Shown here: positions 8,160 to 29,339 of the stretch, one piece after another | Position numbering within the stretch: position 1 is the stretch's first letter | Layout of the letters: each line of letters starts with the position of its first letter | DNA from: Escherichia coli | GTDB lineage: Bacteria; Pseudomonadota; Gammaproteobacteria; Enterobacterales; Enterobacteriaceae | Length of the DNA stretch: 64,000 nt | Direction: 5' to 3' (one strand) | NCBI RefSeq assembly: GCF_003790525.1 | Contig: NZ_CP033635.1 | The notes under the pieces: model-generated | What the model was told of the DNA's origin: nothing | Databases searched by the model: none | Seen by the model: the letters and a program-made list of their open reading frames with translations, nothing else | Position numbers and translations under genes: made by a program

Positions 8160-8373
8160 GTACGGATTAAAAACAGCAAACTATTAGCGGGTGCACGGTT
8201 TTATCAAAAGATAAATACCGGGAAAATCCCGCTTACCTATGCTCACAATCAGTCGACTAAAAATGTTTTTGTGAGCGGTAGTAAAGTCCTAAAACTTTAA
8301 CCTGCCGTTAATGTCAACCTTGCGTAATGCACAATTACGTAAACAATTAAAATTATAAATACAGGAGTCCGGC

Positions 8374-9735
8374 GTGGAAAAAGAAAATATCACCCTCGAT
8401 CCGCGTTCTTCATTTACTCCATCTTCGTCGGCAGATATTCCCGTGCCACCAGATGGATTAGTTCAACGCAGTACCCGAATTAAACGCATTCAAACCACCG
8501 CCATGTTGTTATTATTTTTTGCGGCGGTAATCAATTATCTCGACCGCAGTTCGCTGTCGGTAGCAAATTTAACGATTCGTGAAGAATTGGGATTAAGTGC
8601 CACCGAAATCGGCGCTTTGCTCTCCGTGTTTTCACTCGCTTACGGGATTGCGCAACTTCCTTGCGGCCCACTATTGGATCGTAAAGGCCCGCGCCTGATG
8701 CTGGGACTGGGGATGTTCTTCTGGTCACTGTTCCAGGCCATGTCTGGCATGGTGCACAGCTTTACGCAGTTCGTGTTGGTGCGTATCGGTATGGGGATTG
8801 GTGAAGCGCCGATGAACCCATGCGGTGTAAAAGTCATTAACGACTGGTTCAACATCAAAGAGCGCGGACGCCCGATGGGCTTCTTCAACGCAGCTTCTAC
8901 CATTGGCGTTGCCGTAAGCCCACCGATTCTGGCGGCGATGATGCTGGTGATGGGCTGGCGCGGGATGTTTATTACTATTGGTGTACTGGGGATTTTTCTC
9001 GCCATCGGCTGGTATATGCTCTATCGCAACCGCGAGCACGTAGAACTGACTGCCGTTGAACAAGCTTATCTCAATGCAGGTAGCGTCAATGCCCGCCGAG
9101 ATCCGCTCAGTTTTGCCGAATGGCGCAGCCTGTTCCGTAACCGCACAATGTGGGGAATGATGCTCGGATTCAGTGGCATCAACTACACTGCGTGGCTGTA
9201 TCTGGCCTGGCTTCCTGGTTACCTGCAAACAGCCTATAACCTGGATTTAAAAAGCACAGGGTTGATGGCGGCTATCCCTTTCCTGTTTGGGGCTGCCGGG
9301 ATGCTGGTCAACGGTTACGTTACTGACTGGCTGGTCAAAGGGGGAATGGCTCCGATTAAAAGCCGTAAGATCTGCATTATTGCCGGGATGTTCTGTTCTG
9401 CCGCCTTTACGCTGGTCGTACCGCAAGCGACAACATCCATGACGGCGGTTCTGCTGATTGGTATGGCACTGTTTTGTATTCACTTTGCCGGAACATCCTG
9501 CTGGGGATTGATCCACGTCGCAGTAGCTTCTCGCATGACTGCGTCGGTGGGCAGTATCCAGAACTTTGCCAGCTTCATCTGCGCCTCTTTCGCGCCGATC
9601 ATTACTGGTTTTATTGTTGATACCACCCATTCATTCCGTCTGGCACTAATCATCTGCGGTTGCGTCACTGCGGCGGGTGCACTGGCGTACATCTTCCTGG
9701 TTCGTCAGCCGATCAACGACCCACGGAAAGATTAA
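8374..9735 (+). CDS. lgoT: L-galactonate:H+ symporter (MFS, ACS family)
   Basis: 453 aa polytopic membrane protein; synteny with lgoR/lgoD. Confidence 0.9.
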   Translation: MEKENITLDPRSSFTPSSSADIPVPPDGLVQRSTRIKRIQTTAMLLLFFAAVINYLDRSSLSVANLTIREELGLSATEIGALLSVFSLAYGIAQLPCGPLLDRKGPRLMLGLGMFFWSLFQAMSGMVHSFTQFVLVRIGMGIGEAPMNPCGVKVINDWFNIKERGRPMGFFNAASTIGVAVSPPILAAMMLVMGWRGMFITIGVLGIFLAIGWYMLYRNREHVELTAVEQAYLNAGSVNARRDPLSFAEWRSLFRNRTMWGMMLGFSGINYTAWLYLAWLPGYLQTAYNLDLKSTGLMAAIPFLFGAAGMLVNGYVTDWLVKGGMAPIKSRKICIIAGMFCSAAFTLVVPQATTSMTAVLLIGMALFCIHFAGTSCWGLIHVAVASRMTASVGSIQNFASFICASFAPIITGFIVDTTHSFRLALIICGCVTAAGALAYIFLVRQPINDPRKD

Positions 9736-9744
9736 TCTCCCTAT

Positions 9745-9776
9745 GCCCGATAACATTTTGCTTATCGGGCATTTTT
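9745..9776. terminator. Bidirectional intrinsic terminator between convergent lgoT and tsr
   Basis: Inverted repeat gcccgataa / ttatcgggc with 8-nt loop, followed by T-run atttttat; lies between lgoT stop (9735) and tsr stop (9784). Confidence 0.7.
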
Positions 9777-9783
9777 ATGGCGA

Positions 9784-11448
9784 TTAAAACGTTTCCCAGT
9801 TCTCCCCGCTATCTGCCACGGCCATTTTACGCGGCGCAGCTGGCGTCACGGTTTTTACCACAGCCGATGTTTCACGCTGATGTTGCTGCTGTTGCTGAAT
9901 CCGGAACACTGCCACAGCTTCGGTCAGGCGACTGGCCTGCTCTTCCAGCGCGGCGGCGGCAGCGGCAGATTCTTCCACCAGCGCAGCGTTCTGTTGAGTT
10001 ACCCGGTCCATCTCAGCAACCGCTAATCCAACCTGATCGATACCACGGCTCTGCTCATCAGAAGCAGAAGCTATTTCGCCCATAATGTCCGTCACGCGGG
10101 TCACAGCGCTGACAATCTCTGCCATGGTTTCCCCGGCGCTTTCGACCAGCGTAGAGCCAACATCCACTTTGCCCACCGAGTCTTCAATCAGGCTTTTAAT
10201 TTCGCGAGCCGCCTGAGCGCTACGCTGGGCCAGATTACGCACTTCTCCCGCAACCACCGCAAAACCGCGCCCTTGCTCACCCGCGCGCGCTGCTTCAACC
10301 GCCGCGTTCAAAGCGAGAATATTGGTCTGGAAGGCAATGCCGTCAATTACGCTGATAATATCGGCGATTTTCTGCGAACTGGTGGAGATATCGCGCATGG
10401 TCTGCACCACGTTATCCACCACTTTGCCGCCGCGTTGCGCCGTTTCAGAAGCACTTAACGCCAGGTGGCTGGCCTGGCGCGCATTTTCGGCGTTCTGCTT
10501 CACCGTTGCGGTCAGTTGCTCCATGCTGGCTGCCGTCTCTTCCAGCGAAGCGGCCTGTTGCTCGGTGCGCGAAGAGAGATCGTTATTGCCGGTAGCGATT
10601 TCGCTGGCACCGCTATAGATGGCATTGGCCCCGTTGCGCACATCACCGACGGTACGCATCAGCTCTCCCTGCATATGGCGCAAACTCTCAGCCAGTTGCC
10701 CCATCTCATTAGAGCCATCCACCTCAATCGGTTTCACCAGATCGCCGCCTGCAATATGACGAATGCTGTCAATCAGGCGATTCATTGGCGCTACCAACGA
10801 GGCTTTAATACCGAACCAGACGGCGAAGATGACCGCCAGTACGACGATCATCACGCCCACCAGAATCCACATCGCCTGGCTGTAGGAGGCATTATTATCG
10901 CTGACGGCGATATCATAGAGCCGATCGTTTTGCTCCATGTAAGCCACATACTGCTTCTCGAAACCGTCCTGATATCCCTGGGTTGGCTGATCAAAGAACT
11001 CGTTGATTTTGCCTGCACCTAACAGTTGGATCAGCTCCGCCAGCGCATTGTGATAAATATCGTAATTACGTTTGATCTCTGCCGCTGCGGCGGTGCTCTG
11101 ACGCGGGTCACGCGGCAACGCTTCGTAATCCGCCCAGTTTTTTTCCGCCTGTTTCAGCGAAATACTGGCACTCTGCATCAGCTCAGCAACGGTTGAACCG
11201 CTACCAATATTATTCTGATCCATCATGTAGCGGATACCCGCGCGGTTGAGGGTGTTACGCGTCTGCAACAACGCGACCCAGCTGCCATTCAGCGTGGATT
11301 GCTGCTGGCGAATGGTTTGTAAAACAGTGAAATTTTCTTTGTCATTCTTTAAGGCATTAAAGAACAGACCGCCTGATGTCAGTTGTAAAAGGCCAAAAAC
11401 GGCCAAAACCAGCAGTAAGCTGGTCACGATCTTGATACGTTTTAACAT
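9784..11448 (-). CDS. tsr: Methyl-accepting chemotaxis protein I (serine chemoreceptor)
   Basis: ORF 9784..11463, start placed at MLKRIKIV (ATG at 11448); HAMP and MCP signalling domains, C-terminal NWETF pentapeptide. Confidence 0.95.
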
Positions 11449-11479
11449 GGTTTCTCTTTCCACTAGACAGATACACTGG

Positions 11480-11506
11480 TTGTCGGCCTGGTGGTGGAAA
11501 ACTTTA
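11480..11506 (-). promoter_or_regulatory. Sigma-28 (FliA) class-3 flagellar promoter for tsr
   Basis: Minus strand reads TAAAGTTT-N11-GCCGACAA (consensus TAAAGTTT-N11-GCCGATAA), about 32 nt upstream of tsr ATG. Confidence 0.7.
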
Positions 11507-11587
11507 TGCTGTGGAAAAGCGTCGGCACTGCTTTTGTTGCAGCAAACTTGCGTTTTTTGTGAGGGTCACACTCTATAGCGGCAGTTT

Positions 11588-12493
11588 ATGGTACAAAGTA
11601 TCAATCTTCTTCGAACCAGTGATACTCCTATGGCTTATAGCATCGATATCATCTCCTGCATTACCGAACGGTTTATGGCGTTAACAGCCACTGAAAAGCG
11701 TATCGCACAATTTATTCTTGATGACGTCTCTGCCGCAGTAGAGTTGCCAATTGCTGAGCTGGCACGGTTAACGCAAACCAGTCAGGCGTCGGTGACGCGT
11801 TTTGCCCGTGCACTGGGGTGCAAAGATGTCCGCGAGTTGAAAGTCAAACTGGCGCAGTCACTGGCTGTCGGGCAGCGGTTTATTCTCGATGTACCGGATC
11901 TTGACGGTGTTCAGGGGATCTACGAAGCGATTATTAGCGTGCTGGAGACGCATCGTCGTTCGCTGGATATGAATGCCATCAGCCAGGCTGTAAGCTGGTT
12001 AAGTCAGGCGCGGCAAATTCTTGCGTTAGGAACTGGCGGCGGTTCCACTATCTGTTCACAGGAGATTCAGTACCGTTTATTCCGTCTGGGGCTACCGGTG
12101 GTCAGTCAGAATGATGCCCTGATGATGAGAATGATGTGCTCGGCAGTCATGCCGCAGGATGTGGTGATTGTGCTTTCGCTGGGCGGTTATACACCGGAAA
12201 TCATCGAAAGTGCGGCAATCGCCCGTCAGTATGGCGCGCGTGTTATTGCCATTACGCCAGCACAAACACCGCTGGCGGAACAGGTGGATCTGGTATTGCC
12301 GTTACTGGTTCAGGAAAGTGATTACATCTTTAAGCCCACCCCTTCCCGCTACGCGATGTTAGCCATGGTCGATGTACTGGCAACAGAACTGGCAATGGCA
12401 AATAAAGCGCAGGCGAAAGATCGCCTGCGGCGGATAAAACTCGTGTTAGACAGCCACCGTGGGGGCGCTAACCGCCAGCCACTTGGCGATTAG
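11588..12493 (+). CDS. RpiR/MurR-family transcriptional regulator (HTH + SIS domain)
   Basis: 301-aa ORF; N-terminal HTH (EKRIAQFILDDVSAAVELPIAELARLTQTSQASVTRFARALG) and C-terminal SIS-like region; true start may be an internal Met. Confidence 0.7.
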   Translation: MVQSINLLRTSDTPMAYSIDIISCITERFMALTATEKRIAQFILDDVSAAVELPIAELARLTQTSQASVTRFARALGCKDVRELKVKLAQSLAVGQRFILDVPDLDGVQGIYEAIISVLETHRRSLDMNAISQAVSWLSQARQILALGTGGGSTICSQEIQYRLFRLGLPVVSQNDALMMRMMCSAVMPQDVVIVLSLGGYTPEIIESAAIARQYGARVIAITPAQTPLAEQVDLVLPLLVQESDYIFKPTPSRYAMLAMVDVLATELAMANKAQAKDRLRRIKLVLDSHRGGANRQPLGD

Positions 12494-12502
12494 CATTGTC
12501 GG

Positions 12503-13972
12503 TTATGCTTCTTCAGGTTTGGTGATCACGACACTCTGGTTTTCACGCTCATTGGTGATAATAGCCAAAGCTTCTTCCCGGCTGACCTGACTTGCTGGCG
12601 TTACCAACGTCACCAGTACGCCAGCGACCAGGCTGCCCAGCACTGACGGAATACACGGGTTACCCCAGTAAGCCAGCCAGTCGGCATTCATCAGCACCAC
12701 AATTGACATCACCATACCACTCACTAACGCCGCCAGCGCGCCCTGCCAGTTAAAGCGTAGCCAGAAGCGACCGAGAATCGAGCAGATAAACAACCCGGAC
12801 ATCAGCATCGAAATCATTTTGGTAATGTAGCTGATGATGTCGTTAGAGGTCAGAGCAAAGACCAGCGCCAGGCCAATAACAAAGGTCAACATCCAGCGTG
12901 AGTAAGTGATTGCCTTATCCTCCGGCGGCATTCTGCCGGTAATCATGGTGTAGACGTCGCGCATCATAATCGCCACCGCCGCGATGGCATCGGAGCTGGC
13001 AGAAGACATGGTGGCTGAAAGCCCGGCAATCAGCACCACCAGCCCAAGAATGGCAGGTAAGAAACTGGTCGCGAACAAGAAGGCGTAGTTGCTGTTTTCC
13101 AGATTTGGGTTCATGGTGAACGCCGCCATGCCGATAATGGCAGGCAAAATCGAGAAGAACAGATATAACACCCCAGTAATAACAAACGAACGGCGTACAG
13201 AGGGAACATCTTTACCCGAGTAAATACGCTGGCGATAAGACGGTGTTGCCAGCACACCTACGCCAATAACCAGTGCCAGCGAAAGCGCAGGCAGCACGCC
13301 CATTTTATCAATCGCAAACAGGCTCATCGCTTTTGGGTCCATCGCCTGCTCAATCGCACTCCAGCCGCCAACGTGAACAACGGCAAGAATAGCCATTAAT
13401 ATAAAGCCAAAGAACAGAATTAGGGCCTGAATAGTATCTGTCCACACTACCGCCGAATAACCGCCGATAATAACGTAAATCGCAAAAGCTAAGGCAATAA
13501 TTAATTTTGCCACCGTAAGATCAATACCTGTTGCCCAGGCAAGATACATACTTCCACCTAATATATGCGCCCCCAGCCAGCCAATAGAGGCAATAAATAT
13601 CATCAGGCCGACAATATTTTTAATTAAATGGCTGCCGCCAGTATAATAAGATATTTCTTCACTCATGGTCATAAATCGTAATTTACGTACCGGTGCAAAC
13701 AGCCACGCCACCAGTAATATACCTACGGCCCCACCGACGCCATAAAGCATTCCGGCCCAGCCATTGCTGTAGCCAAAGCCCACTGCGCCCATACTGGAAC
13801 CCGTGCCAACCATCGTGGCAACGGTTGACCCCAGCGTCAGAAACAGCGGCAGCGAACGCCCGCCCAGCAGAAAATCTTCTCCGCTTTTCTGATTACGAGA
13901 AACAAACCAACCAAGCCAAATCATGGCGATGGCATAAATAATAAAGCCGACTAAAAAGATATGACTGTTCAT
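12503..13972 (-). CDS. Sodium:solute symporter (SSS family) transporter
   Basis: 489-aa polytopic membrane protein; first gene of minus-strand unit with RidA and D-aminoacylase. Confidence 0.7.
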   Translation of the reverse strand: MNSHIFLVGFIIYAIAMIWLGWFVSRNQKSGEDFLLGGRSLPLFLTLGSTVATMVGTGSSMGAVGFGYSNGWAGMLYGVGGAVGILLVAWLFAPVRKLRFMTMSEEISYYTGGSHLIKNIVGLMIFIASIGWLGAHILGGSMYLAWATGIDLTVAKLIIALAFAIYVIIGGYSAVVWTDTIQALILFFGFILMAILAVVHVGGWSAIEQAMDPKAMSLFAIDKMGVLPALSLALVIGVGVLATPSYRQRIYSGKDVPSVRRSFVITGVLYLFFSILPAIIGMAAFTMNPNLENSNYAFLFATSFLPAILGLVVLIAGLSATMSSASSDAIAAVAIMMRDVYTMITGRMPPEDKAITYSRWMLTFVIGLALVFALTSNDIISYITKMISMLMSGLFICSILGRFWLRFNWQGALAALVSGMVMSIVVLMNADWLAYWGNPCIPSVLGSLVAGVLVTLVTPASQVSREEALAIITNERENQSVVITKPEEA

Positions 13973-14074
13973 AATTCACATCCTGCCAGTAGAGAGAAAT
14001 TAATGTAAGAGTTCCCGGAGTGCTGAATGTATTCAGCACTCAATTGCGGTCTGTTTTTTTAATTCTTAAATTTA

Positions 14075-14470
14075 TTAGCGGGTCGCGTTATAACAGGTCA
14101 CATCGACTTCGACTTTACAATCGACAACCAGATCAGCCACACAACAAATACGTGCAGGTGGATTCTCGCCAAAAAATTCTCTGAATACTTTATTAAATGA
14201 CTGGAAATAGCGGGCGTCGGTCAGGATCACTTTCACGTGAACCACATCCACCAGGCTATAACCGGCTTCAGTCATGATGTCGACACAGTTTTGAATCGCC
14301 AGTCGTGACTGTTCAACGATTCCGCCTTCTACCACTTCACCGTTTTTCATGGGTGTTTGCCCGGAGACGTACAGCCAGCCGCCCGCCTCAACCGCCCTGG
14401 CAAAAGGCAAATGCTGCCCGCCAGTGCCTGTTCCACCTTCCGTACCGTAACGTTTAATGCTCATATTCAC
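14075..14470 (-). CDS. RidA/YjgF-family reactive enamine/imine deaminase
   Basis: 131 aa, size and sequence typical of RidA/YjgF/TdcF family; 3 nt downstream of the aminoacylase gene. Confidence 0.7.
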   Translation of the reverse strand: MNMSIKRYGTEGGTGTGGQHLPFARAVEAGGWLYVSGQTPMKNGEVVEGGIVEQSRLAIQNCVDIMTEAGYSLVDVVHVKVILTDARYFQSFNKVFREFFGENPPARICCVADLVVDCKVEVDVTCYNATR

Positions 14471-14473
14471 TCC

Positions 14474-15925
14474 TTAATGTGAGGTCTGCCGGCGCAGGAA
14501 GCGTCCCGCACGGCCTGTAATATGTTTATCGGGACCATAGCTCATAACGCCGTTCACCATCACCGCCTCAATGCCATCTGCCGGGCGTTTGGGATCAGAA
14601 AAGCTGGCAACATCACGAATGGTTTGTGGATCGAACAACACCAGGTCCGCAAAATAGCCAACTTTCACCAGCCCACGCTGGGGCAGGCGAAAACGGCTGG
14701 CAGAAAGCCCGGTCATTTTGTGGATAGCCGTGGTCAGTGGGAATAAGCCTTCATCACGGCAATAGTGGCCCAGCACGCGAGGGAAGGCGCCCCATAAACG
14801 TGGATGCGGCATGGGATCATTGGGCAGGCCGTCAGAGCCAATCATACTGACCGGATAACTCAACACTCGGCGGACGTCGCGCTCGTCCATGTTGTAATAG
14901 ATAGCCCCGGCAGGCATTAGCAGCTTCGCGGCCTCCAGCATACTCATCTGCCAGTCGATGGCGATTTGCGCCAGTGTTTTCCCGGCCTGCTGCGGATGTG
15001 TTTGTGACCAGGTGATCACAATATCGAATTCGTCGGTGACTTGTTTGAGATCCAGCGTTGAAGAGCTGGCTGAGTAAGGGTAGACATCGCAGCCAATTTC
15101 CTGGTGTTGACGCATTTGGTCAAAAAAGGCCAACGTTTCTTTTGTCCGCCCCCAGTTTTTCGCCCCGGCGCATTTATGGTGGGAAACCACGACAGGCACT
15201 TTGCCATGACGCCCAATACGAAACGCCTCATCCAGGGCATCGAGAATCGGTTCAAATTCAGAACGCAGATGGGTGGTATAAACGCCCTTCTCACCGGCTA
15301 ATTCTTCCGCCAGCGCCATGACTTCTTCGGTAGTCGCCTGAAATGCCGTTGCATAGGCCAGCCCGGAACTTAACCCCAGCGCCCCCTGACTCAACGCCAG
15401 ACGTAAGTCGGCACGCATAGCGGCAATTTCATCCACCGTCGCCGGGCGAAACAGGTCGTCCATATGGTTATTACGCAGCGCCGTATGACCAATCAGCGTG
15501 CCAACGTTCAGTGACGGCCTGGCTGCTTCCACTGCCTGGGCATAGCTTTCAACGGTAGGATAAATAAAGTGCTCTGCTTCCCCCAACAGATTCATCGGGT
15601 CAGGAACTTCACCTTTCATTTTCGCCGACGCCGCACTAATCCCGCAGTTACCGACAATCACCGTAGTGATCCCCTGGCTGATCTTTGGCAGATATTCCGG
15701 GATGCGAATAACGTTGATATCGTCATGGGTATGAACGTCGATAAACCCTGGTGCCAGCACCCGCCCTTCCCCGTCAATGACCTGCTGCGCCGTAACGTTA
15801 AGCGCAGGGGCAATATCGACAATCCGATCACCTGTTATTGCCACGTCACCGCGAAATTCAGGGCCGCCGCTACCGTCGATAACGGTCACATTTTTGATTA
15901 ACCAGTCAACCTGCATGTTCGTCAC
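14474..15925 (-). CDS. N-acyl-D-amino-acid deacylase (D-aminoacylase), amidohydrolase superfamily
   Basis: 483 aa; metal-binding GFIDVHTHDD, and blocks PKISQGITTVIVGNCGIS, VPVVVSHHK, MIGSDGLP, HPRLWGAFPRVLGHY that match D-aminoacylases as I recall them. Confidence 0.8.
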   Translation of the reverse strand: MTNMQVDWLIKNVTVIDGSGGPEFRGDVAITGDRIVDIAPALNVTAQQVIDGEGRVLAPGFIDVHTHDDINVIRIPEYLPKISQGITTVIVGNCGISAASAKMKGEVPDPMNLLGEAEHFIYPTVESYAQAVEAARPSLNVGTLIGHTALRNNHMDDLFRPATVDEIAAMRADLRLALSQGALGLSSGLAYATAFQATTEEVMALAEELAGEKGVYTTHLRSEFEPILDALDEAFRIGRHGKVPVVVSHHKCAGAKNWGRTKETLAFFDQMRQHQEIGCDVYPYSASSSTLDLKQVTDEFDIVITWSQTHPQQAGKTLAQIAIDWQMSMLEAAKLLMPAGAIYYNMDERDVRRVLSYPVSMIGSDGLPNDPMPHPRLWGAFPRVLGHYCRDEGLFPLTTAIHKMTGLSASRFRLPQRGLVKVGYFADLVLFDPQTIRDVASFSDPKRPADGIEAVMVNGVMSYGPDKHITGRAGRFLRRQTSH

Positions 15926-16116
15926 TCCATTTCTGCAATGGTGACAAGTTAACCATTTACAAGGACGAAAAACAGTGGAAAACTACGCAAAACCCAGATG
16001 ATTTTATGATACTTTTATTCATAAATAATAAGATAAATAAACTAAATATTTATATTTCATTTAGTTACAAATGATACTCACATCCGATACGGTGAAAAAC
16101 TTAAAAGGTAAATGTT

Positions 16117-17337
16117 ATGAAATACCACTCAGAACCTCTGGTTCCCCATAAATCTGCCCTGATGCAAATGCCCGCAAATCTCCTTGCCGAAGATGTCTGT
16201 TTACCTGCCGCGATCATTAAAAAGCAGGCCCTGGAGAACAACATTACGTGGATGCAACGCTACGCTGACGCGCGCGGCGTTTCACTGGCACCGCACGGTA
16301 AAACCACCATGACGCCGTGGATTTTTCAGGCGCAGCAGGCGGCTGGTGCCTGGGCAATAGGTGTCGGTAGCGCATGGCAGGCTGGTGCGGCAATGGCGAG
16401 CGGTATTCAGCGAGTGCTGATGGTTAACCAGCTGGTCGGCAAGGCGAATATGCAGTTGATTGCCCAGTTGCAACGACATTACCCGACGGTCGATTTTATC
16501 AGCTGTATCGACAGCATTGAGAACGCCCGCGCTTTGTCTGCCTTTTTTGCCAGTCAGCAACAGACACTGAACGTGATGATTGAGTTGGGTGTCCCCGGCG
16601 GGCGCTGTGGTTGCCGCTCAAGGGATGCCGCACTGACACTGGCTAAACAGGCAGCCCAATTACCGGGGTTACGCCTGCGGGGGCTTGAGTTATATGAAGG
16701 CGTTTTACACGGTGACGATCCACAACCGCAGGTAGAAGCTCTGCTGCGGGATGCCGCACAACTGGCCTGTGATATGGCAAGTCTGGTTGATGGCGAGTTT
16801 ATTCTCACCGGAGCAGGCACGGTCTGGTATGACGTGGTGTGCAATATCTGGCTGGCGGCAGAAAAGCCTGATAACTGCCGCATTGTTATTCGCCCTGGCT
16901 GCTACATCACTCACGACACCGGGATCTACGACGCGGCACAACAACAGTTGCTTGCCCGTGATCCTGTGGCTTGCGATCTGGCAGGCGATCTCACATCTGC
17001 ACTGGAACTGGTCGCCATGGTGCAATCGGTGCCGGAAGCTGATCGTGCGGTGGTTAATTTTGGTAAGCGTGATTGCGCCTTCGACGCCGGACTGCCGCAA
17101 CCAGTCGCCCACTATCGCAACGGCAAATCACTGGCATTTGATCCACAGGCGATTCGCAGTACAGGCATTATGGATCAGCACTGCATGTTGCAGTTGGGTG
17201 CCGACAGCGACGTGCAAGTGGGGGATATTCTGGTGTTTGGCACATCGCATCCGTGCCTGACCTTCGACAAATGGAAAACGTTGTTATTGACTGATGACGA
17301 CTACAACGTACTGGCAGAATTAGACACTCTCTTCTAA
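16117..17337 (+). CDS. PLP-dependent D-amino-acid dehydratase/aldolase, alanine-racemase-N fold (DSD1-like)
   Basis: 406 aa; candidate PLP lysine in APHGKTTM; divergent from the aminoacylase unit across an AT-rich promoter region. Confidence 0.6.
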   Translation: MKYHSEPLVPHKSALMQMPANLLAEDVCLPAAIIKKQALENNITWMQRYADARGVSLAPHGKTTMTPWIFQAQQAAGAWAIGVGSAWQAGAAMASGIQRVLMVNQLVGKANMQLIAQLQRHYPTVDFISCIDSIENARALSAFFASQQQTLNVMIELGVPGGRCGCRSRDAALTLAKQAAQLPGLRLRGLELYEGVLHGDDPQPQVEALLRDAAQLACDMASLVDGEFILTGAGTVWYDVVCNIWLAAEKPDNCRIVIRPGCYITHDTGIYDAAQQQLLARDPVACDLAGDLTSALELVAMVQSVPEADRAVVNFGKRDCAFDAGLPQPVAHYRNGKSLAFDPQAIRSTGIMDQHCMLQLGADSDVQVGDILVFGTSHPCLTFDKWKTLLLTDDDYNVLAELDTLF

Positions 17338-20018: not shown

Positions 20019-20975
20019 ATGAACCCGATTGCAGTTACCCTACTCACCGGTTTTTTAGGCGCGGGCAAAACCACCCTGCTGCGCCATATTCTTAATGAAC
20101 AGCACGGCTACAAAATTGCCGTGATTGAAAACGAATTCGGCGAAGTCTCCGTTGATGATCAACTGATTGGCGATCGCGCCACGCAGATCAAAACGCTGAC
20201 CAACGGCTGCATCTGTTGTTCGCGCTCCAACGAGCTGGAGGACGCGCTACTCGACCTGCTGGATAATCTCGACAAGGGCAATATTCAGTTCGACCGTCTG
20301 GTCATTGAATGCACAGGCATGGCCGATCCCGGCCCGATTATTCAGACCTTTTTCTCCCATGAGATTTTATGCCAGCGTTACCTGCTGGACGGCGTGATTG
20401 CGCTGGTGGATGCGGTACATGCCGATGAGCAGATGAACCAGTTCACCATCGCCCAGTCACAGGTTGGCTACGCCGACCGTATTCTGCTGACTAAAACCGA
20501 CGTCGCAGGTGAAGCAGAAAAACTGCGCGAACGCCTGGCACGCATCAACGCCCGCGCACCGGTCTACACCGTCACCCACGGCGACATCGACCTGGGCCTG
20601 TTGTTCAACACCAACGGTTTTATGCTGGAAGAAAACGTCGTCAGCACCAAACCGCGTTTCCACTTTATCGCGGATAAACAAAACGATATTTCGTCGATTG
20701 TGGTGGAACTGGATTACCCGGTAGATATCAGCGAAGTTTCCCGCGTGATGGAAAACCTGCTGCTGGAATCGGCGGATAAACTGCTGCGTTACAAAGGGAT
20801 GCTGTGGATTGACGGCGAACCTAACCGCCTGCTGTTCCAGGGTGTCCAGCGCCTCTACAGCGCCGACTGGGACAGGCCATGGGGCGATGAAAAACCGCAT
20901 AGCACGATGGTGTTTATCGGGATTCAGCTGCCGGAGGAAGAGATTCGGGCGGCGTTTGCGGGGTTAAGGAAGTAA
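20019..20975 (+). CDS. yjiA: Zn-associated P-loop GTPase YjiA (CobW/COG0523 family)
   Basis: Start at MNPIAVTLLTGFLGAGKTTLL (P-loop), 318 aa; CxCC motif NGCICCS. Confidence 0.9.
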   Translation: MNPIAVTLLTGFLGAGKTTLLRHILNEQHGYKIAVIENEFGEVSVDDQLIGDRATQIKTLTNGCICCSRSNELEDALLDLLDNLDKGNIQFDRLVIECTGMADPGPIIQTFFSHEILCQRYLLDGVIALVDAVHADEQMNQFTIAQSQVGYADRILLTKTDVAGEAEKLRERLARINARAPVYTVTHGDIDLGLLFNTNGFMLEENVVSTKPRFHFIADKQNDISSIVVELDYPVDISEVSRVMENLLLESADKLLRYKGMLWIDGEPNRLLFQGVQRLYSADWDRPWGDEKPHSTMVFIGIQLPEEEIRAAFAGLRK

Positions 20976-21305
20976 TACCCTTAACCTACTAATACGAAGC
21001 GGACGAGGATAAAACCCTATCATTTTCCGTTCGCTTCACTATTTTATTTCGTTCCAACACCCATTAAAATTAAAAATATAATTCTGCCATAATTTCCTGA
21101 ACACAGATGTAATTACATTGCCACCACTCATACTTTTAAAAATAATTTATATGATAGACGTCCTATTGAGGCGTAATAGATGTATTAATTTCCAAATACG
21201 CAAACATTCTGGTACAGTCCAAAAAAGAAAAATCATCAACCAAAACAATCAGCAAATAAATTAACAACGATTGAATCATAATCAACACGAATACAAGAGA
21301 TTAAC

Positions 21306-23156
21306 ATGGCAACAATAATCCCAACAATCAGTAGCTGCAACGATAAAATTACTGCCGGAGAGAAAAGGCTGGCAAGAATTCTGGAAAGAGGACTAGGCGA
21401 AGAGTGCTGCTGTTGGTATGACATTCCCACGGGTGATAAGCATCTTCACCCAGATTTTATGATACTTTCGCCAGAAAAAGGCATTATTTTTCTCGAGGTA
21501 AAAGATTGGTTTATTACAAAAATAAAAAAAGCCAACAAGTCTAATGTGTTGTATGAGACACAAAATGGTATTCAATCTTTAAAGAATCCGATAGAACAAG
21601 TTAGGCGATATGCTTTCGAAGCTGTAAACCAGTTAAAAAAAGACCCCCTATTGTGCCAACAGGATGATCGTTACAATGGCAATCTTCTTTTCCCCTATGG
21701 ATATGGCGTCTACTTTAGTAATATTACACGAGAAGCATTAAATAATAAATTTACTCAAGAAGAGCTGCTCGGGATCTTCCCATCAGATCTCATCATCTGC
21801 AAAGACGAAATAAATGAATTCATGTCAAAAGAGGATGTTTCATCCAAAATACATTCGTTGATTAAATATGACTTCAAATGTCATGCTACACAAGAACAGT
21901 TGAACAGGATTAGATGGCACTTATACCCCGATGTCAGAATAGAAAGGGAAAAGAGAAGTAAAAACCGTGATGAATTTAGTGTCGATGCACCAACCATCAT
22001 TTCTATCCTGGATACTCAACAGGAACAACTTGCCAGAAGTATGAGAGATGGCCACCGGATCATTCATGGTGTTGCAGGTTCAGGGAAGACATTGATCCTC
22101 TATCATCGCTGTCAGGAATTAGCGAAAAAAAATGACAGCGAAAAGCCAATTCTTGTCATTTGCTACAATATTACTTTAGCCAAAAAACTTCGGTCGATGT
22201 TCATCAATCATCCCTTTGCAGAGAAAATAAAGGTTAAAAATTTTCATGCTTGGTGTTTCCAACAAATTAAAGAAAACAAGATCACTATTCCAGAAGGGGA
22301 TAATATTTTTGAAAATATGGAGCTAGCGTTGACTGATGGTTTCAAGACAGGAAAAATAAAACCAGAACAATACAGCGCTGTATTAATTGATGAAGGACAT
22401 GATTTTAAGCCAGAATGGTTAAAAATCCTGGCAAAAATGACTGACTCTCAGGACGAGAATTTGCTATTCCTTTATGATGATGCTCAGTCAATTTACCAAA
22501 AAAAGAAAGCATTAGACTTTACACTGTCCAGCGTAGATATTAAAGCGACAGGACGCACAACCATTCTTAATATAAATTATAGAAACACACAGCAAATCCT
22601 ACACTTTGCCAGTTGCATTGCATTTAATTATCTTAATAGCCATATCGATAGTTCTTTAACCTATCATAAACCTGCTGCGGGAGGAATGAATGGCGATTAT
22701 CCCAACCTTGAACATTTCGACACACAGGACGAAGAAATAGCACGAGCAGTCGAATGGATTACAGAGCAAAATGAACAAGGGATTCCGTGGTCTGAAATTG
22801 CTATACTAAGTCCATCAACTCACACCCTTTCTAACTCTCTAAGCTCTGTACTTGAATCGAAAAACATCCCCTTTAATCTTATTGTAAGCTCTGCAGATAA
22901 AAAGTCCTGGACGCCAGAACAAGAGCGTATTTCTGTTATGCCATTACCCAGCAGTAAAGGACTTGAGTTTCACTCAGTTGTCATTATTGATGCAGCGAGA
23001 ACACGGGATAATAGCGATGATTTGAGTGAGGATATAAAGAGACTCTATGTAGGTTTTACCCGAGCACGTTGCAATCTCTTGGTAACCTTGCACGGTGAAG
23101 GTGCGTTAAATGAGCATCTACTAAAAACCTATGAGCAAAGCCCACAATATATGTAA
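21306..23156 (+). CDS. NERD-domain nuclease fused to SF1 (UvrD-like) helicase; candidate single-gene anti-phage protein (Nhi-like architecture)
   Basis: 616 aa; NERD/PD-(D/E)xK-like N-terminus (HPDFMILSPEKGIIFLEVKDW); Walker A GVAGSGKT; Walker B VLIDEGHDF; UvrD_C-like RLYVGFTRARCNLLV; sits in an AT-rich block in the slot K-12 uses for mrr-hsdRMS. Confidence 0.75.
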   Translation: MATIIPTISSCNDKITAGEKRLARILERGLGEECCCWYDIPTGDKHLHPDFMILSPEKGIIFLEVKDWFITKIKKANKSNVLYETQNGIQSLKNPIEQVRRYAFEAVNQLKKDPLLCQQDDRYNGNLLFPYGYGVYFSNITREALNNKFTQEELLGIFPSDLIICKDEINEFMSKEDVSSKIHSLIKYDFKCHATQEQLNRIRWHLYPDVRIEREKRSKNRDEFSVDAPTIISILDTQQEQLARSMRDGHRIIHGVAGSGKTLILYHRCQELAKKNDSEKPILVICYNITLAKKLRSMFINHPFAEKIKVKNFHAWCFQQIKENKITIPEGDNIFENMELALTDGFKTGKIKPEQYSAVLIDEGHDFKPEWLKILAKMTDSQDENLLFLYDDAQSIYQKKKALDFTLSSVDIKATGRTTILNINYRNTQQILHFASCIAFNYLNSHIDSSLTYHKPAAGGMNGDYPNLEHFDTQDEEIARAVEWITEQNEQGIPWSEIAILSPSTHTLSNSLSSVLESKNIPFNLIVSSADKKSWTPEQERISVMPLPSSKGLEFHSVVIIDAARTRDNSDDLSEDIKRLYVGFTRARCNLLVTLHGEGALNEHLLKTYEQSPQYM

Positions 23157-23173
23157 AAATGATAAATTATCTC

Positions 23174-23205
23174 CATAACGCCCGGTAACGCTGTACCGGG
23201 CGTTA
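23174..23205 (+). terminator. Perfect 13-bp stem-loop downstream of NERD-helicase gene
   Basis: ataacgcccggta-acgctg-taccgggcgttat, 18 nt after stop; no strong T-run, so may be a structural element rather than a classic terminator. Confidence 0.5.
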
Positions 23206-23288
23206 TGAATGTATATCTAAGATATTAGTCACGCCTGATAGCCGCTACCAAAAACGCCATCATCTCCCTCTCATCTTTGCTGTGATAA

Positions 23289-23594
23289 AAGCGTACCATT
23301 TTGCTGTTAAATTCCAGCGCTTTAGCCACTGGAATTAACAAGTTCAAACTTCCGACAACGAAGTTCCAGTTATTACAAAAATTACTGGCAAAAGAGATGA
23401 AAAGCGTAGTTGACAACACATCGAAATATACTGACTGGAGTAAACGCGATGATATTAAAGCGAAACTGAAAGTTGAACTTATTCTGCTTCTACACAAGCA
23501 TAAGTTCCCGCCAGTAGCGAATGATGATGTTTATATGGGTGTGCTGGCACAGGCAGAGAATTTTAAAGAACATCATATGAGTGCTTTAAATTAA
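23289..23594 (+). pseudogene. Frame-closed 3' gene fragment, possibly the C-terminal domain of a type I restriction HsdR subunit
   Basis: Open frame begins straight after a TAA with no ATG or SD (track ORF 23301..23594 opens on TTG); helical, K/E-rich sequence ...VDNTSKYTDWSKRDDIKAKLKVELILLLHKHKFPPV... that I associate with HsdR C-termini (recollection, not verified). Confidence 0.3.
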
Positions 23595-23602
23595 TTATGA
23601 AG

Positions 23603-23628
23603 GCCGGATACACTTTGTTATCCGGCCA
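23603..23628 (+). terminator. Hairpin after the gene fragment
   Basis: ggccggata-cactttgt-tatccggcc, 9-bp stem, 8 nt after the fragment stop. Confidence 0.45.
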
Positions 23629-23713
23629 TTGTGAATTAACGTTAATTTCTCTTCCAGATATTTCCAGTAACGCTTTTATTATTTTCTATTTTTAGCTGGA
23701 CTTTCCCTGTATT

Positions 23714-23733
23714 TACTGATGATATGTCCAGGT
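23714..23733 (+). promoter_or_regulatory. Candidate LexA (SOS) box upstream of symE
   Basis: tactgatgatatgtccaggt contains CTG-N10-CAG about 80 nt upstream of symE ATG; K-12 symE is SOS-inducible. Confidence 0.45.
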
Positions 23734-23769
23734 ATTTAGCGCGGTGCGAATGTGCGCCAACACACCCGC

Positions 23770-23850
23770 ACCGCTCATCACAATCACTATTTATGGAGAA
23801 TAGTAATCATGACTGACACGCATTCTATTGCACAACCGTTCGAAGCAGAA
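23770..23850 (-). ncRNA. symR: SymR antisense sRNA (antitoxin) opposite the symE 5' end; position approximate
   Basis: Inferred from K-12 arrangement, where SymR is encoded antisense across the symE start; not independently visible in sequence. Confidence 0.4.
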
Positions 23851-24150
23851 GTCTCCCCGGCAAATAACCGTCAATTAACCGTGAGTTATGCGAGTCGCTA
23901 CCCGGATTACAGCCGTATTCCCGCCATCACCCTGAAAGGTCAGTGGCTGGAAACCGCCGGTTTTGCTACCGGCACGGCGGTAGATGTCAAAGTGATGGAA
24001 GGCTGTATTGTCCTCACCGCCCAACCACCCACCGCCGAAGAGAGCGAACTGATGCAGTCACTGCGCCAGGTGTGCAAGCTGTCAGCGCGTAAACAAAAGC
24101 AGGTGCGGGAATTTATTGGGGTGATTGCCGGTAAACAGAAAGTCGCCTGA
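23809..24150 (+). CDS. symE: SOS-induced toxin SymE (AbrB/SpoVT-fold endoribonuclease-like)
   Basis: In-frame ATG within ORF 23752..24150 gives [30 protein letters not shown]..., 113 aa, recognised as SymE. Confidence 0.9.
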
Positions 24151-24158
24151 TACATTGA

Positions 24159-24182
24159 CCCGGTAGCGCCAGTGCTACCGGG
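24159..24182. terminator. Bidirectional hairpin between convergent symE and GmrSD-like gene
   Basis: cccggtagc-gccagt-gctaccggg, 9-bp stem, in the 46-bp convergent gap. Confidence 0.6.
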
Positions 24183-24196
24183 TATTATTCGCCGTG

Positions 24197-26290
24197 TTAG
24201 ACCAACGCGCTCTCCATCTGTTTTTCAAATGCCTGACGAATTAATCCCATAACGTAAGGAAGTTGTGCGAGGTCGCTGAAACCAATTTCCACATCACCAT
24301 TGCCCCAGCGCCCAACATTTGTCACATCTTTGGCAATACCTTTCGGATCGACCAGTTCATGAAACTGCATATTAAGCGACAATCGCAGTCGGCTTTTTTG
24401 CGGCACAACATCAACAAAATTCGTTTCCGCTTTAAACGCAATATAGAGCTTCAATACTTCCTGCGTGATCCCTGCGTCCAGGCGCATAACTTCATCGCGA
24501 AGATGATCAAATAACACCCGGCTATGCGAACCATCAGCAAGAAAAGGATAATCACTCAGGCTATAACTGGTTTTGTTTTCAGGCTGCGCCCGATAAACAG
24601 CTAAAACCTCTTCAGGAAGAGCAGGCGCTTGCCAGACCTGAACCGCGAGATCGGCCAGACGATCGGCACGGGCGCGAATGGCGGCTTCATCCCATTTTTC
24701 GCACTGTCCAAGACCGATATTCAAATAAAGCGGGCTATGCTTAAAGCCGTCTTCAATATCGCGTTTTTCCGCGAAAGGTCTGTCACTGTAGCGGGAGTTA
24801 TAGCGCGTTAATGTGAGATTCCCCAACGTATGTAACAGTTCTTTATGCACACGCTGCCAGTCGCTTCCCAGCTCTTCACGCCATTTAGCCGACAAATTTT
24901 CGTTCTGCGGCATAATATGCTCAATCGTAAACTCTTCCACGCGCTCTCTGCGTTTATCGTTTTCCAGTCGTCGTAACCAGTAGCTGCGACTGCGGAAGTT
25001 ATAGAGATCGCGAACTTTTAATTCCCGTTTAAATTCATCATCGTTGGGGAAACGACGATATGAAGGCAGATTCAGAAAATGTACCTGAATACTTTCCAGA
25101 TATTTTTCTTTAATAATGACCTTATAAAAGGTAGCAAACGTCTTGTTAAGAGAATTTGTCGGAATCGCACATACTGCACGGCGGAAAACATAAGATTCAA
25201 TTAAACGAATTATGCTCAGGAAATCTTCGTGAGGCAAATCGCCATTTTTATAGTCATGATAAAGCGCCAGTAAGAAAGGATACGCCACATCGACCTTTAA
25301 CTCGCGCAAATCCTGAAAAGCCGTAGCAAGCGATTTGTCACTTTCTTTACCCAATGCCATTGCACAGTAATACTCCGCGTAGATGTGAATATCTTCAACC
25401 AGGTGATCCACGCCTTTTTCAGCAACACTCTGGCTGCGGGCATGGAGTTTAAATGCCTCATAGACTTCATCTGTACGAGGGATCTCCCCCGTTTTTACCG
25501 TCAGATAATGACGCATAAAGCTGTCAAAATATTCGCTGTAACCTTGCTGACCAAAAGCGACTTCCATTGGACGCCAGTGATCTTCATACAACCGGGTTTG
25601 ATGCTCTGGTTCGAGACCCATCAGAATAAAATTGCGCACCAGATCGGCCTGACTTAACGCCTTACCGGTAGAGTTCATACTTTCAAAAATCAGTTGCGGA
25701 TTATCCTGACCACGATTAAGCGCCACATCGACAATTAATAATTTTGCTAACCCACGACATAAGGGGATCAAGTCATCACCGAGTTTGGCAATTTGCTCAT
25801 CAAAGAAAGTAAAGTTTTCCATTATTCGATGGGAATAGTTTTCTGGCATTGGTCTTTGTTTTATTAACGCCAGCAAACTGTCTTTATCAGTCTCGGTCAG
25901 CAGTAATTTAAATCCTTTCTCGCCGGACTCATAAGGATTGAGTAAATAATAATTACGCAATTTCATTGCTGAAAAGCCATCAAAAACTTCGTCTTCGCCA
26001 AGATGACGCGATAAAGCCTCAATCAGCAACATTGCGGTCGTCAGCCTTTGTTGACCATCAATGACCAGTAACGGAGAAATACCAGAAACCTGATACAACC
26101 CCTGCTCAATATAAACAACCGAACCGATAAAATGCGCTGATATATCGTCACGCTTTCCGGCACGAATGATGTCGTCCCAAAGTTGCCGACATTGTTGTTC
26201 TGTCCATGAATAAGTCCGTTGATAAATGGGAATCACAAACTGCTGCGAACGTTTTAAAAAATCGAGTAGGCGGGCTTCTGTAGCTTTCAT
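24197..26290 (-). CDS. DUF262 (ParB-like NTPase) + DUF1524 (His-Me finger nuclease) protein: GmrSD-family type IV restriction-type enzyme
   Basis: 697 aa; DUF262 signature LVIDGQQRLTT near N-terminus; C-terminal HNH-like block EHIMPQN ... LHTLGNLTL; occupies the mcrBC side of the immigration control region. Confidence 0.8.
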   Translation of the reverse strand: MKATEARLLDFLKRSQQFVIPIYQRTYSWTEQQCRQLWDDIIRAGKRDDISAHFIGSVVYIEQGLYQVSGISPLLVIDGQQRLTTAMLLIEALSRHLGEDEVFDGFSAMKLRNYYLLNPYESGEKGFKLLLTETDKDSLLALIKQRPMPENYSHRIMENFTFFDEQIAKLGDDLIPLCRGLAKLLIVDVALNRGQDNPQLIFESMNSTGKALSQADLVRNFILMGLEPEHQTRLYEDHWRPMEVAFGQQGYSEYFDSFMRHYLTVKTGEIPRTDEVYEAFKLHARSQSVAEKGVDHLVEDIHIYAEYYCAMALGKESDKSLATAFQDLRELKVDVAYPFLLALYHDYKNGDLPHEDFLSIIRLIESYVFRRAVCAIPTNSLNKTFATFYKVIIKEKYLESIQVHFLNLPSYRRFPNDDEFKRELKVRDLYNFRSRSYWLRRLENDKRRERVEEFTIEHIMPQNENLSAKWREELGSDWQRVHKELLHTLGNLTLTRYNSRYSDRPFAEKRDIEDGFKHSPLYLNIGLGQCEKWDEAAIRARADRLADLAVQVWQAPALPEEVLAVYRAQPENKTSYSLSDYPFLADGSHSRVLFDHLRDEVMRLDAGITQEVLKLYIAFKAETNFVDVVPQKSRLRLSLNMQFHELVDPKGIAKDVTNVGRWGNGDVEIGFSDLAQLPYVMGLIRQAFEKQMESALV

Positions 26291-26386
26291 TCTGACGTCT
26301 TTCCGTGAAGCGATGATTTCGCAATAATAACCACTTCCTTGTGGAGGTTATAGAGAAATCCTGTTTATCCGCGACGAACTGCCCCA

Positions 26387-26551
26387 TCACTCCACATCCT
26401 CCCTGCGTAACCCAATATCCCTCAACCGCTCATCACTCATCTGCTGTAACACCCGCCGGGCCTGCATTTGCCGCCGCCAACGCCTCACTGCCTGCCAGAG
26501 TTGCACAAGTCCAATAAACGGTGCTTTAGCTTTGTTTTCGTGAAATTCCAT
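26387..26551 (-). CDS. yjiS: YjiS, DUF1127 small protein
   Basis: Hand-translated 54-aa ORF (below the track cutoff): MEFHENKAKAPFIGLVQLWQAVRRWRRQMQARRVLQQMSDERLRDIGLRREDVE; recognised as K-12 YjiS. Confidence 0.8.
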   Translation of the reverse strand: MEFHENKAKAPFIGLVQLWQAVRRWRRQMQARRVLQQMSDERLRDIGLRREDVE

Positions 26552-28382: not shown

Positions 28383-29339
28383 TTAGTACTCGATCCATGG
28401 ATCGCGCTTGCTTTCAGGCAAGGGCTGCTCTAATGCCTGCATTTGCTCTGCCGAAAGTCCGGTATATCGTTGTATCCATTCAGGATCCGCCCCATTCTGC
28501 AACAACAATCGGAGGAGGCTCTTTTCCCCTTCTTCTTTCCCTTCTTTCCTCCCCCTCTCCCTTCCCAACAGCCATCCATCATTATGAATTCGCTCTGCAA
28601 TCGTCATTATTCGCTCCCTGTGTTGTGGCATTCGACGGATAAGTTCGCTGATAAACTCATTAAAACGCGCTTCATCGCCAGTCAGTAAAATGTAATTTAA
28701 CAGCGCGGTTATCTGGCTGTCATTAGCGCACCCTGTAACCAGTAATACTGCCAGTTGATCAATAAGCCCCATTAGATCGCGCTGGCGAATATGCTTTTGG
28801 ATCAACTCCAGCAGGGCGACTCTGCGATGCTGCACAATCTCGTCGTCTGGCACGACAGTGACATCCACCAGCGGGAACGCTGCGGTATAAAGCTTCCGCG
28901 CGGTAGCCGGGTCGGCAAATTCATCCAGCCAGCACAAAGACCAGGGGTAAGGACTACGGCTACTGTGATAAAACAGCATCGGGATGACCAGCGGTAGCGG
29001 CCGGCGTTTATCATGCTCGATATGGCGCTGCATCACCGCCATGGAATATCGCATCAGGCGAAAGGCCATATGGATATCCTCGCGGCTCTGATGTTCAATC
29101 ACCACATAAATATAGCCATCTCCTTCGCGGGTCTTTACCGACCACAGAATATCGGAATGTAGCGCCCGCAATTTTTCATCGACAAAGCTGGCGTATTCCA
29201 GTTTTAAGCTGTCGAGATCGCACAGTTCACGTAAATCTTTGGGTAAGTGGATCTCCATAAAATCCCGCGCGGTGTCAGGGTGGGTGAGAAAAGATTTAAA
29301 TAATGCGTCATGCGGCGTGCTGGTCGTGAAGTTTGTCAT
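28383..29339 (-). CDS. rpnD: Rpn-family recombination-promoting nuclease (PD-(D/E)xK, YhgA-like), intact
   Basis: 318-aa uninterrupted ORF recognised as YjiP/YjiQ (RpnD); acidic/lysine-rich C-terminal tail. Confidence 0.8.

Follow-up and report, generated by a model that had tools for sequence, protein, structure and literature searches.

Where Escherichia coli K-12 carries, in order, yjiA, mrr, hsdR, hsdM, hsdS, symE, mcrB, mcrC, the yjiV/yjiT pseudogenes and yjiS, the chromosome of E. coli SMS-3-5 encodes a 616-amino acid (aa) NERD nuclease-helicase and a 697-aa GmrSD-like protein, which raises the question of whether these two proteins form one defence system and what the first of them does. 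The locus lies within a 64-kb stretch of DNA (the window), which corresponds to the reverse strand of the SMS-3-5 chromosome (NC_010498.1) at 100 % identity. The interval between yjiA and yjiS, the immigration control region (ICR), has been documented as a defence island of hypervariable content (hotspot 36; PMC12707154), as stated in the initial annotation of this sequence, and GmrSD is present in 12 % of 8,424 enterobacterial ICRs (2025 EcoSal review). The open reading frame (ORF) listing gives the gene order yjiA, the 616-aa ORF, a short open frame, symE, the convergent 697-aa ORF and yjiS (Table 1), and the two large ORFs are not chance ORFs, since they are long and are matched by hidden Markov models (HMMs) with E-values of 1e-140 to 1e-222. 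The overlap with K-12 at the DNA level between yjiA and yjiS is limited to symE, initially named as the only shared gene, and symR, which is antisense to the start of symE (Rfam). The ICR allele of SMS-3-5 is made up of two unrelated single-gene modules, acquired and inherited independently, together with symE/symR and a dead hsdR stub. We consider it probable that both modules target nucleic acids, independently of one another, and that the 616-aa protein serves as a stand-alone nuclease-helicase immune effector.

The prediction of a NERD and UvrD-like helicase ORF in an AT-rich block is upheld by the ORF listing, Pfam analysis and GC content. The Pfam domains are arranged as NERD (residues 17-110) followed by AAA_19, UvrD-helicase and UvrD_C, while the GC content falls to 0.35-0.41 across positions ~21000-23750, with flanks of at least 0.52 (0.382 for the helicase coding sequence (CDS), 0.541 for yjiA and 0.443 for the GmrSD-like gene). 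The PADLOC model PDLC01087, 'C3a187 NERD+UvrD', aligns with residues 1-599 over positions 1-547 of its 559 (E = 1.3e-140), the RTasNERD-Hel model gives a weak but full-length match (3.6e-22, residues 1-594), and the GajB, AbiO and Nhi models match locally only. At E <= 1e-30 the family comprises 508 representatives at 50 % identity, nearly all of them ~600-630 aa in length, and is spread over Gammaproteobacteria, Ralstonia and cyanobacterial plasmids. Conservation was assessed in an alignment of 56 family members, the most distant at 27 % identity, and in a second one of 30 N-terminal regions (27-64 % identity overall). The nuclease residues E19, D50, E64 and K66 (E...PD...ExK) and the helicase motifs Q239, GSGKT (258-262), D362/E363, DDAQ (391-394), R417, NYRN (424-427), KG (551-552) and TR (585-586) are invariant or nearly so, with Walker A, DE, the arginine fingers, motifs III-VI and the four nuclease residues invariant across 30-56 homologues. 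Between the E. coli helicase alleles the ratio of nonsynonymous to synonymous polymorphism (pN/pS) is 0.10-0.21, in keeping with purifying selection.

The AlphaFold2 model of the 616-aa protein is confident (predicted local distance difference test (pLDDT) 89.8). An alpha/beta nuclease (residues 1-110) is followed by a small, conserved alpha/beta region (125-210), which a disordered linker (215-226) separates from the helicase part. As the latter extends over only ~385 aa, a large 2B domain cannot fit. By fold, the N-terminal domain is matched best by immune PD-(D/E)xK nucleases, namely those of Cdn1, Can2, Card1, SLFN11/12, Shedu SduA and McrC. Sequence searches of the helicase against solved structures returned UvrD/PcrA-level matches only, and a search against PHROGs gave generic helicase matches only. 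A prophage or phage origin of the helicase was also considered and rejected, with no tblastn match at E <= 1e-10 among 50,697 phage records, a result which is neutral with respect to its role.

A search for the segment 20976-23300 in 5,426 complete E. coli genomes recovered it from 101 (1.9 %), always on the chromosome and always in a single copy, and the gene is uninterrupted in 100 of these, the remaining copy being disrupted by IS903B. The gene is accordingly rare in the species, and it was acquired horizontally. Identity as a housekeeping UvrD, Rep, PcrA, HelD or RecB helicase, which the initial annotation had allowed for, was rejected on this distribution and on the NCBIfam scores, the best being 57.7 bits against a cut-off of 965 (helicase II). 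The cassette, hsdR stub and symE are carried as a block in 100 genomes, in which two allele groups of the helicase block (at least 99.3 % and about 96.4-96.8 % identical) are distinguished, and this fits a single ancestral replacement that was spread by flanking homologous recombination.

A parent-type ICR occurs in strain SW07163, where yjiA is followed by brnTA, a gene for a 388-aa restriction endonuclease, hsdM, hsdS, hsdR, symE, GmrSD and yjiS. Relative to this arrangement SMS-3-5 has kept yjiA, then diverges, and homology returns at position 23332, inside hsdR. Strain WB61 matches only the first 134 bp after yjiA (99.3 % identity), and the left junction of the cassette is placed near position 21110 because these 134 bp are common to another ICR variant. 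To the right of the helicase, the fragment initially described as frame-closed proved to be a C-terminal hsdR remnant (PADLOC, RefSeq pseudogene). It lies in a short open frame spanning 23301-23594 (+) and retains the last ~65 codons, which match positions 963-1027 of the 1029 in the PADLOC REase_I model (E = 1.5e-25). Two pieces, 23332-23398 and 23384-23594, make up the remnant; they overlap by 15 bp at the join, and their counterparts are non-contiguous in the parent hsdR (SW07163 locus 11652-11718 and 12001 onward). The join suggests a microhomology-mediated internal deletion on top of the cassette replacement. In the sequence of events proposed here, a 2.2-kb low-GC cassette containing the helicase gene only would have replaced brnTA, the mrr-like gene, hsdM, hsdS and most of hsdR in a parent ICR, after which the cassette-hsdR stub-symE block would have spread among E. 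coli lineages via recombination through the conserved flanks. Taken as a whole, the promoter and terminator scans gave no more than chance results; the one feature to stand out is the 16-bp-stem hairpin beyond the helicase stop codon, which is likely to be a terminator or the end of the cassette. LexA boxes, which might indicate that the cassette is co-regulated with symE, an SOS gene, were matched at chance level only, and nowhere near the cassette.

Homologues sharing 52-64 % identity with the 616-aa protein are found in the ICRs of four other genera, Leclercia, Salmonella, Klebsiella and Atlantibacter. The Leclercia homologue directly follows yjiA, with the 60-bp 3' end of yjiA duplicated beyond the gene, and this cassette seems to have been inserted into the end of yjiA with duplication. 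The Leclercia yjiA 3' end copy, a CobW_C fragment ORF, lies downstream of the helicase (loci 10166-10225 and 9972-10442). In Salmonella Enteritidis the homologue is located between brnTA and an hsdS fragment, while that of Klebsiella aerogenes adjoins yjiR and yjiS. Mobile-element ends common to the helicase loci were ruled out, as blastn comparison of the E. coli, Leclercia, Salmonella and Klebsiella loci revealed no common flanks or repeats. Since the DNA similarity among these ICR loci is confined to the CDS, the cassettes are considered separate, old arrivals. Outside the ICR, homologues are encoded between restriction-modification methylase genes on a Vibrio harveyi conjugative plasmid, with methyltransferase and HNH nuclease genes as neighbours in Vibrio, near smpB beside a PLD-SNF2 helicase and a methyltransferase in Photobacterium, and, in Budvicia, within an islet of integrase and transposase genes. 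A conserved partner gene is lacking across the ~14 homologue contexts, with the possible exception of the Vibrionaceae methyltransferase. In all the Vibrio and Photobacterium homologues examined, a divergent class I S-adenosylmethionine (SAM)-methyltransferase of ~190-200 aa is encoded ~180-320 bp upstream (loci 7245-7820, 7236-7820, 7076-7684 and 7103-7684), with variable nuclease genes (PLD-SNF2 helicase or HNH_2) next to it. Identity between the methyltransferases is only 29 %, where the adjacent helicases share 64 %, and the methyltransferase may be either a partner gene or a neighbouring module.

The second module, the convergent 697-aa protein initially recognised as DUF262/DUF1524, belongs to the GmrSD family and incorporates an extra C-terminal DUF5655 domain. 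Pfam places GmrSD_N (DUF262) at residues 9-222 (E = 9e-35), GmrSD_C (DUF1524) at 415-547 (E = 1e-26) and DUF5655 at 591-690, and both the DGQQR motif (78-82) and a (D/E)HxxP His-Me-finger motif (EHIMP, 457-461) are present with their domains in one open chain. The best PADLOC model is Orf5 (1.7e-222) rather than mREase_IV, while the HEC-06 models match over the full length (3e-67). The single-chain combination of DUF262 DGQQR and DUF1524 (D/E)HxxP is shared with the GmrSD enzymes (GmrSD of CT596, Eco94GmrSD, BrxU, HEC-06 and SspE), from which the 697-aa protein differs in its DUF5655 domain. In the related and experimentally validated HEC-06, mutation of either motif abolishes defence. APECO1_2080, an example of the ICR type, is 24 % identical to Eco94GmrSD (He et al. 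2015, PMC4437046). When sequences of solved structures were searched, no match was found for the DUF5655 tail, and the N-terminus matched an uncharacterised DUF262 protein (9jfl) and SspE. By homology, the 697-aa protein would be a nucleoside triphosphate (NTP)-dependent His-Me-finger type IV nuclease that cuts modified-base DNA, such as the hydroxymethylcytosine (hmC) or glucosyl-hmC DNA of T-even phages, and it may restrict phages or plasmids.

The gene takes the place of mcrBC in the SMS-3-5 ICR, being situated between yjiS and symE, as is typical of the CLS_001 / EcSMS35_4888 group. The initial annotation was correct in identifying this exchange, which is nevertheless not new: EcSMS35_4888 is listed as a GmrSD homologue replacing mcrBC in Fig. 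8 of He et al. 2015 (PMC4437046), and the GmrSD half of the locus adds nothing to that report. The yjiS-CLS_001-symE synteny is given in Supplementary Dataset 6 of a 2025 survey in which CLS_001 is the largest enterobacterial GmrSD cluster. For that survey, synthetic representatives of all 15 GmrSD groups defined from CLS_001-020, the 20 commonest clusters, were tested against T-even phages, and a CLS_001 representative was among them (PMC12373910). Of the 3,146 E. coli genomes with any match, a large proportion carry the symE-GmrSD-yjiS segment, which the O157:H7 strains match at 96.2 % identity, with the same gene order in NE122. The 90 %-identity cluster of the protein has 3,852 members, among which the 697-aa form is the common one, and pN/pS between alleles is 0.03-0.08, the differences being mainly synonymous. 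A second GmrSD-family gene (CLS_005) adjoins yjiA in the ICRs of O157:H7 (locus 1262-2913) and CFT073 (Supplementary Data 6, PMC12373910), so that some ICRs hold two GmrSD-type genes. The annotation of the O157:H7 CLS_005 gene is likewise divided, into parts of 285 and 1,359 nt.

Both modules are affected by problems in the RefSeq annotation. In SMS-3-5, TUM18780 and SW07163, the GmrSD-like ORF is split into a 388-aa CDS and a 'DUF262 pseudogene', but the frame of 2,094 nt is uninterrupted in each of these strains (locus 12213-14306 in TUM18780 and 12814-14907 in SW07163). In O157:H7 NE122 the corresponding region measures 2,093 nt (locus 9522-11614), and the 1-bp deletion causes a true frameshift after ~codon 293. 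Frameshifted alleles of the O157:H7 type appear to be the source from which the split gene model was propagated. The 616-aa protein is mostly named '3'-5' exonuclease', a designation without support from any domain evidence, and in other cases 'nuclease-related domain-containing DEAD/DEAH box helicase'. The split ORF and the exonuclease name hide both genes from domain-based defence surveys, and surveys of RefSeq proteins based on DUF262 would under-count the ICR GmrSD family.

On balance, the 616-aa gene is probably a defence gene. The case for defence cargo, which is reasonable but unproven, combines its low GC content, its presence in so few E. coli genomes, its occurrence in the same ICR in other genera, the restriction-gene and integrase neighbours elsewhere, and HMMs that derive from type III CRISPR and UG34 settings. 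For this protein we infer a protective phenotype, a substrate and a capacity for self/non-self discrimination. In the mechanism envisaged, the ATP-driven SF1A UvrD-like motor (a superfamily 1 (SF1) helicase), which lacks large accessory domains, would load on invader single-stranded DNA, DNA ends, or replication or recombination intermediates, and would feed the DNA to, or position, the N-terminal NERD PD-(D/E)xK nuclease, which would degrade it. Translocation would be coupled to NERD cleavage, in parallel with the unrelated single-protein system Nhi (SERP2475) of Staphylococcus epidermidis, a protein of 606 aa with a PD-(D/E)xK nuclease (~230 aa) and an SF1 helicase (Bari et al., bioRxiv 10.1101/776245). 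Both activities of Nhi are needed for immunity, in which phage replication intermediates are degraded and the accumulation of phage DNA is blocked (bioRxiv 10.1101/776245). The 616-aa protein resembles Nhi in having an N-terminal PD-(D/E)xK nuclease followed by an SF1 helicase, a length of ~600 aa and no partner gene. However, the Nhi helicase is DUF2075/Dda-like, while the fold of the 616-aa protein is closer to Rep/UvrD than to Dda, and it does not fall within the Nhi family, with an E-value of 2.6e-4 for PF09848 and a PADLOC Nhi match of 34 bits restricted to residues 235-295 (the Walker A region). A specifically Nhi-like mechanism is advanced only tentatively, as a possibility suggested by analogy.

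Comparison with other systems places the protein in a familiar architectural class. It belongs to the same family as C3a187 by its full-length HMM match, but in place of type III cas genes its neighbours in SMS-3-5 are yjiA, the hsdR stub and symE. C3a187 is a candidate family defined by adjacency alone, from three loci in which it adjoins type III cas cassettes (Shah et al. 2018). The NERD-helicase of the UG34 defence-associated reverse transcriptase (DRT) system, RTasNERD-Hel (cluster 485; Mestre et al. 2022), shares the NERD plus C-terminal helicase architecture; however, its match is far weaker than that of C3a187, and no reverse transcriptase gene is found in the SMS-3-5 ICR. A UvrD-family motor is also shared with Gabija GajB, ARMADA ArmD and DarH, as reflected in local matches to many GajB models (up to 1e-20). 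Furthermore, DarH likewise lacks the large 2B domain and ArmD has an N-terminal nuclease fused to the UvrD helicase. These three proteins, however, act with partners (GajA, ArmABC and DarTG, respectively), while the 616-aa protein is without a conserved partner, and its nuclease is NERD and not RelE or TOPRIM. Gabija in particular can be set aside, as the GajB matches are local only and no GajA-like (OLD/TOPRIM ATPase) gene is adjacent. A wider proposal is that the NERD-UvrD (C3a187) family constitutes a stand-alone, single-protein anti-phage or anti-plasmid system, like Nhi or Hna, built on a minimal SF1A core and repeatedly displacing type I restriction-modification genes in enterobacterial ICRs. 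We regard this as a serious possibility that falls slightly short of being probable. If it holds, annotation tools would miss the family because it is listed only as a CRISPR accessory.

Several points weigh against this interpretation of the two modules. The analogy with Nhi is architectural only, PADLOC includes the NERD+UvrD family as a CRISPR accessory HMM and not as a system, and no experimental test of the family was found in the searchable literature. The association of the family with defence islands is not universal, for distant homologues (36-40 % identity) are located in a type VI secretion system (T6SS) cluster (locus 8001-9812) and between xseA and guaB (locus 8001-9827), and that of Microbulbifer is also in an uninformative or non-defence setting. 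As regards the GmrSD-like protein, five newly active variants are reported in PMC12373910, to which CLS_001 may or may not belong. The O157:H7 allele is frameshifted, so this gene is dispensable in a successful lineage.

Among the alternatives, a role of the 616-aa protein as a host or plasmid helicase-nuclease in repair, recombination or replication restart, with the ICR merely tolerating insertions, is unlikely, although the closest folds of its helicase are the repair and recombination motors Rep, AdnB, AddB, RecB and UvrD1. Some distant homologues do stand among housekeeping genes, the E. coli IncK2/Z plasmids carry one (39 % identity) near partition and umuDC genes, and ICRs also hold cargo unrelated to defence, for example penicillin amidase and aldehyde dehydrogenase. 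Set against these are the restriction of the gene to a small minority of E. coli genomes, NCBIfam scores of at most 6 % of any curated repair-helicase cut-off, and its repeated arrival, in five genera, at the same hotspot amid remnants of restriction-modification genes. Furthermore, the N-terminal fold groups with immune nucleases, and the family was first noticed beside type III CRISPR and defence-associated reverse transcriptase loci.

It is quite improbable that one or both genes are decaying passengers without current function. Such decay could be read from the single-base deletion in the O157:H7 GmrSD-like allele, the IS903B insertion in one helicase copy and the reduction of the neighbouring hsdR to a stub, but both SMS-3-5 ORFs are intact with complete catalytic motifs, and the pN/pS values between alleles of the two genes range from only 0.03 to 0.21. 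In addition, all but one of the 101 helicase copies are uninterrupted, and the 697-aa form predominates in its large protein cluster.

The two-gene content was initially put forward as a plausible anti-phage configuration, and a single cooperating system of NERD-helicase and GmrSD-like gene could draw on the occurrence of both in 40 complete E. coli genomes and on Atlantibacter subterranea (locus 8001-11773), in which a 618-aa GmrSD-family gene lies 57 bp downstream of the NERD-helicase homologue on the same strand, followed by yjiN. Comparison of the ICR intervals showed instead that the genes occur independently. At least 80 % of the whole interval 20976-26400 is present in only those 40 genomes, leaving ~60 helicase-positive genomes without the full cargo, while thousands of genomes carry the GmrSD-like gene without the helicase. 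For example, the ICR of a derivative of enteropathogenic E. coli (EPEC) E2348/69 (locus 9331-12869) contains the helicase, hsdR stub and symE, but the GmrSD gene is missing. This E2348/69-derivative ICR also has truncated yjiS and yjiR genes. The GmrSD of Atlantibacter belongs to a different clade, with 24 % identity to the SMS-3-5 gene, and the Leclercia, Salmonella and Klebsiella helicase loci are without a GmrSD neighbour. With the Atlantibacter arrangement, the two gene types are paired in an ICR for a second time, independently of the first. Because their distribution is independent and the genes are convergent in SMS-3-5 and separated by unrelated elements (the hsdR stub and symE/symR), they do not form one functional unit; the two-gene system was rejected and is very improbable.

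No CRISPR-Cas systems other than type I are known from E. coli, which counts against a type III CRISPR role. A role of the 616-aa protein as a cyclic oligoadenylate-controlled accessory effector of type III CRISPR is hardly credible, for while its full-length C3a187 match is to a family defined from type III cas neighbourhoods and its N-terminal domain best matches the nuclease domains of Cdn1, Can2 and Card1, Pfam detects no CARF or SAVED sensor domain, the model consists of nuclease, small alpha/beta linker and helicase only, no cas genes flank any of the ~14 homologue contexts examined, and the type III association is limited to three loci (Shah et al. 2018).

The NERD-UvrD cargo of the ICR is undescribed in the searchable literature, while the family itself is already catalogued bioinformatically (PDLC01087; Shah et al. 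2018). No characterised E. coli counterpart of the NERD-helicase was found, in agreement with the initial annotation; the literature on validated NERD+UvrD systems yielded only ZwsA (a NERD RNA endonuclease of different architecture), domain surveys and TALON/ARMADA, and Hochhauser et al. 2023 makes no mention of the 616-aa gene. The fresh part of the finding is the helicase only. Should it restrict phages or plasmids, a compact one-gene nuclease-helicase system would be added to the pan-immune repertoire of E. coli, the bioinformatic label C3a187 would become a defined system, and the ICR allele of EPEC E2348/69 and ~2 % of E. coli would be explained. The annotation gains would then be broad, given the about 500 clusters at 50 % identity in the NERD-UvrD family. 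The main value of the locus lies in a well-defined and cheap experimental target, and in the pointer to the two RefSeq annotation problems.

Table 1. Features of the SMS-3-5 immigration control region (ICR) and its borders, in coordinates of the window
Feature	Position	Strand	Basis
yjiA, GTPase, conserved left anchor of the ICR	20019..20975	+	NCBIfam NF008578, 683 bits vs cut-off 361; RefSeq
AT-rich spacer 3' of yjiA	20976..21109	.	GC 0.351; common to at least one other ICR variant
Low-GC (0.378) single-gene cassette	21110..23331	+	Comparison with strain SW07163 ICR; GC values
616-aa NERD (PD-(D/E)xK) nuclease + minimal SF1A UvrD-like helicase, WP_000190966.1	21306..23156	+	
GC-rich hairpin, 16-bp stem, directly 3' of helicase stop codon	23172..23209	.	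Consensus scan only
hsdR remnant (type I restriction subunit, C-terminal end), two joined pieces	23332..23594	+	PADLOC REase_I; RefSeq pseudogene; blastn to SW07163 hsdR
symR antisense antitoxin RNA	23738..23814	-	Rfam RF01809, 92.8 bits vs gathering score 61
symE, SOS-induced endoribonuclease toxin	23809..24150	+	NCBIfam NF010128, 227 bits vs cut-off 132; K-12 comparison
697-aa single-chain GmrSD-family protein, EcSMS35_4888, cluster CLS_001	24197..26290	-	Pfam, PADLOC, motifs, literature
yjiS (DUF1127), conserved right-hand neighbour	26387..26551	-	RefSeq

Two further differences or similarities were observed in the surroundings of the ICR. Upstream of btsT, SMS-3-5 carries genes for an N-acyl-D-amino-acid deacylase and an amino-acid deaminase (~15000-17337), where K-12 has tsr directly. 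Just past yjiR, a gene for an Rpn-family recombination-promoting nuclease is present (28383-29339), as in other ICRs.

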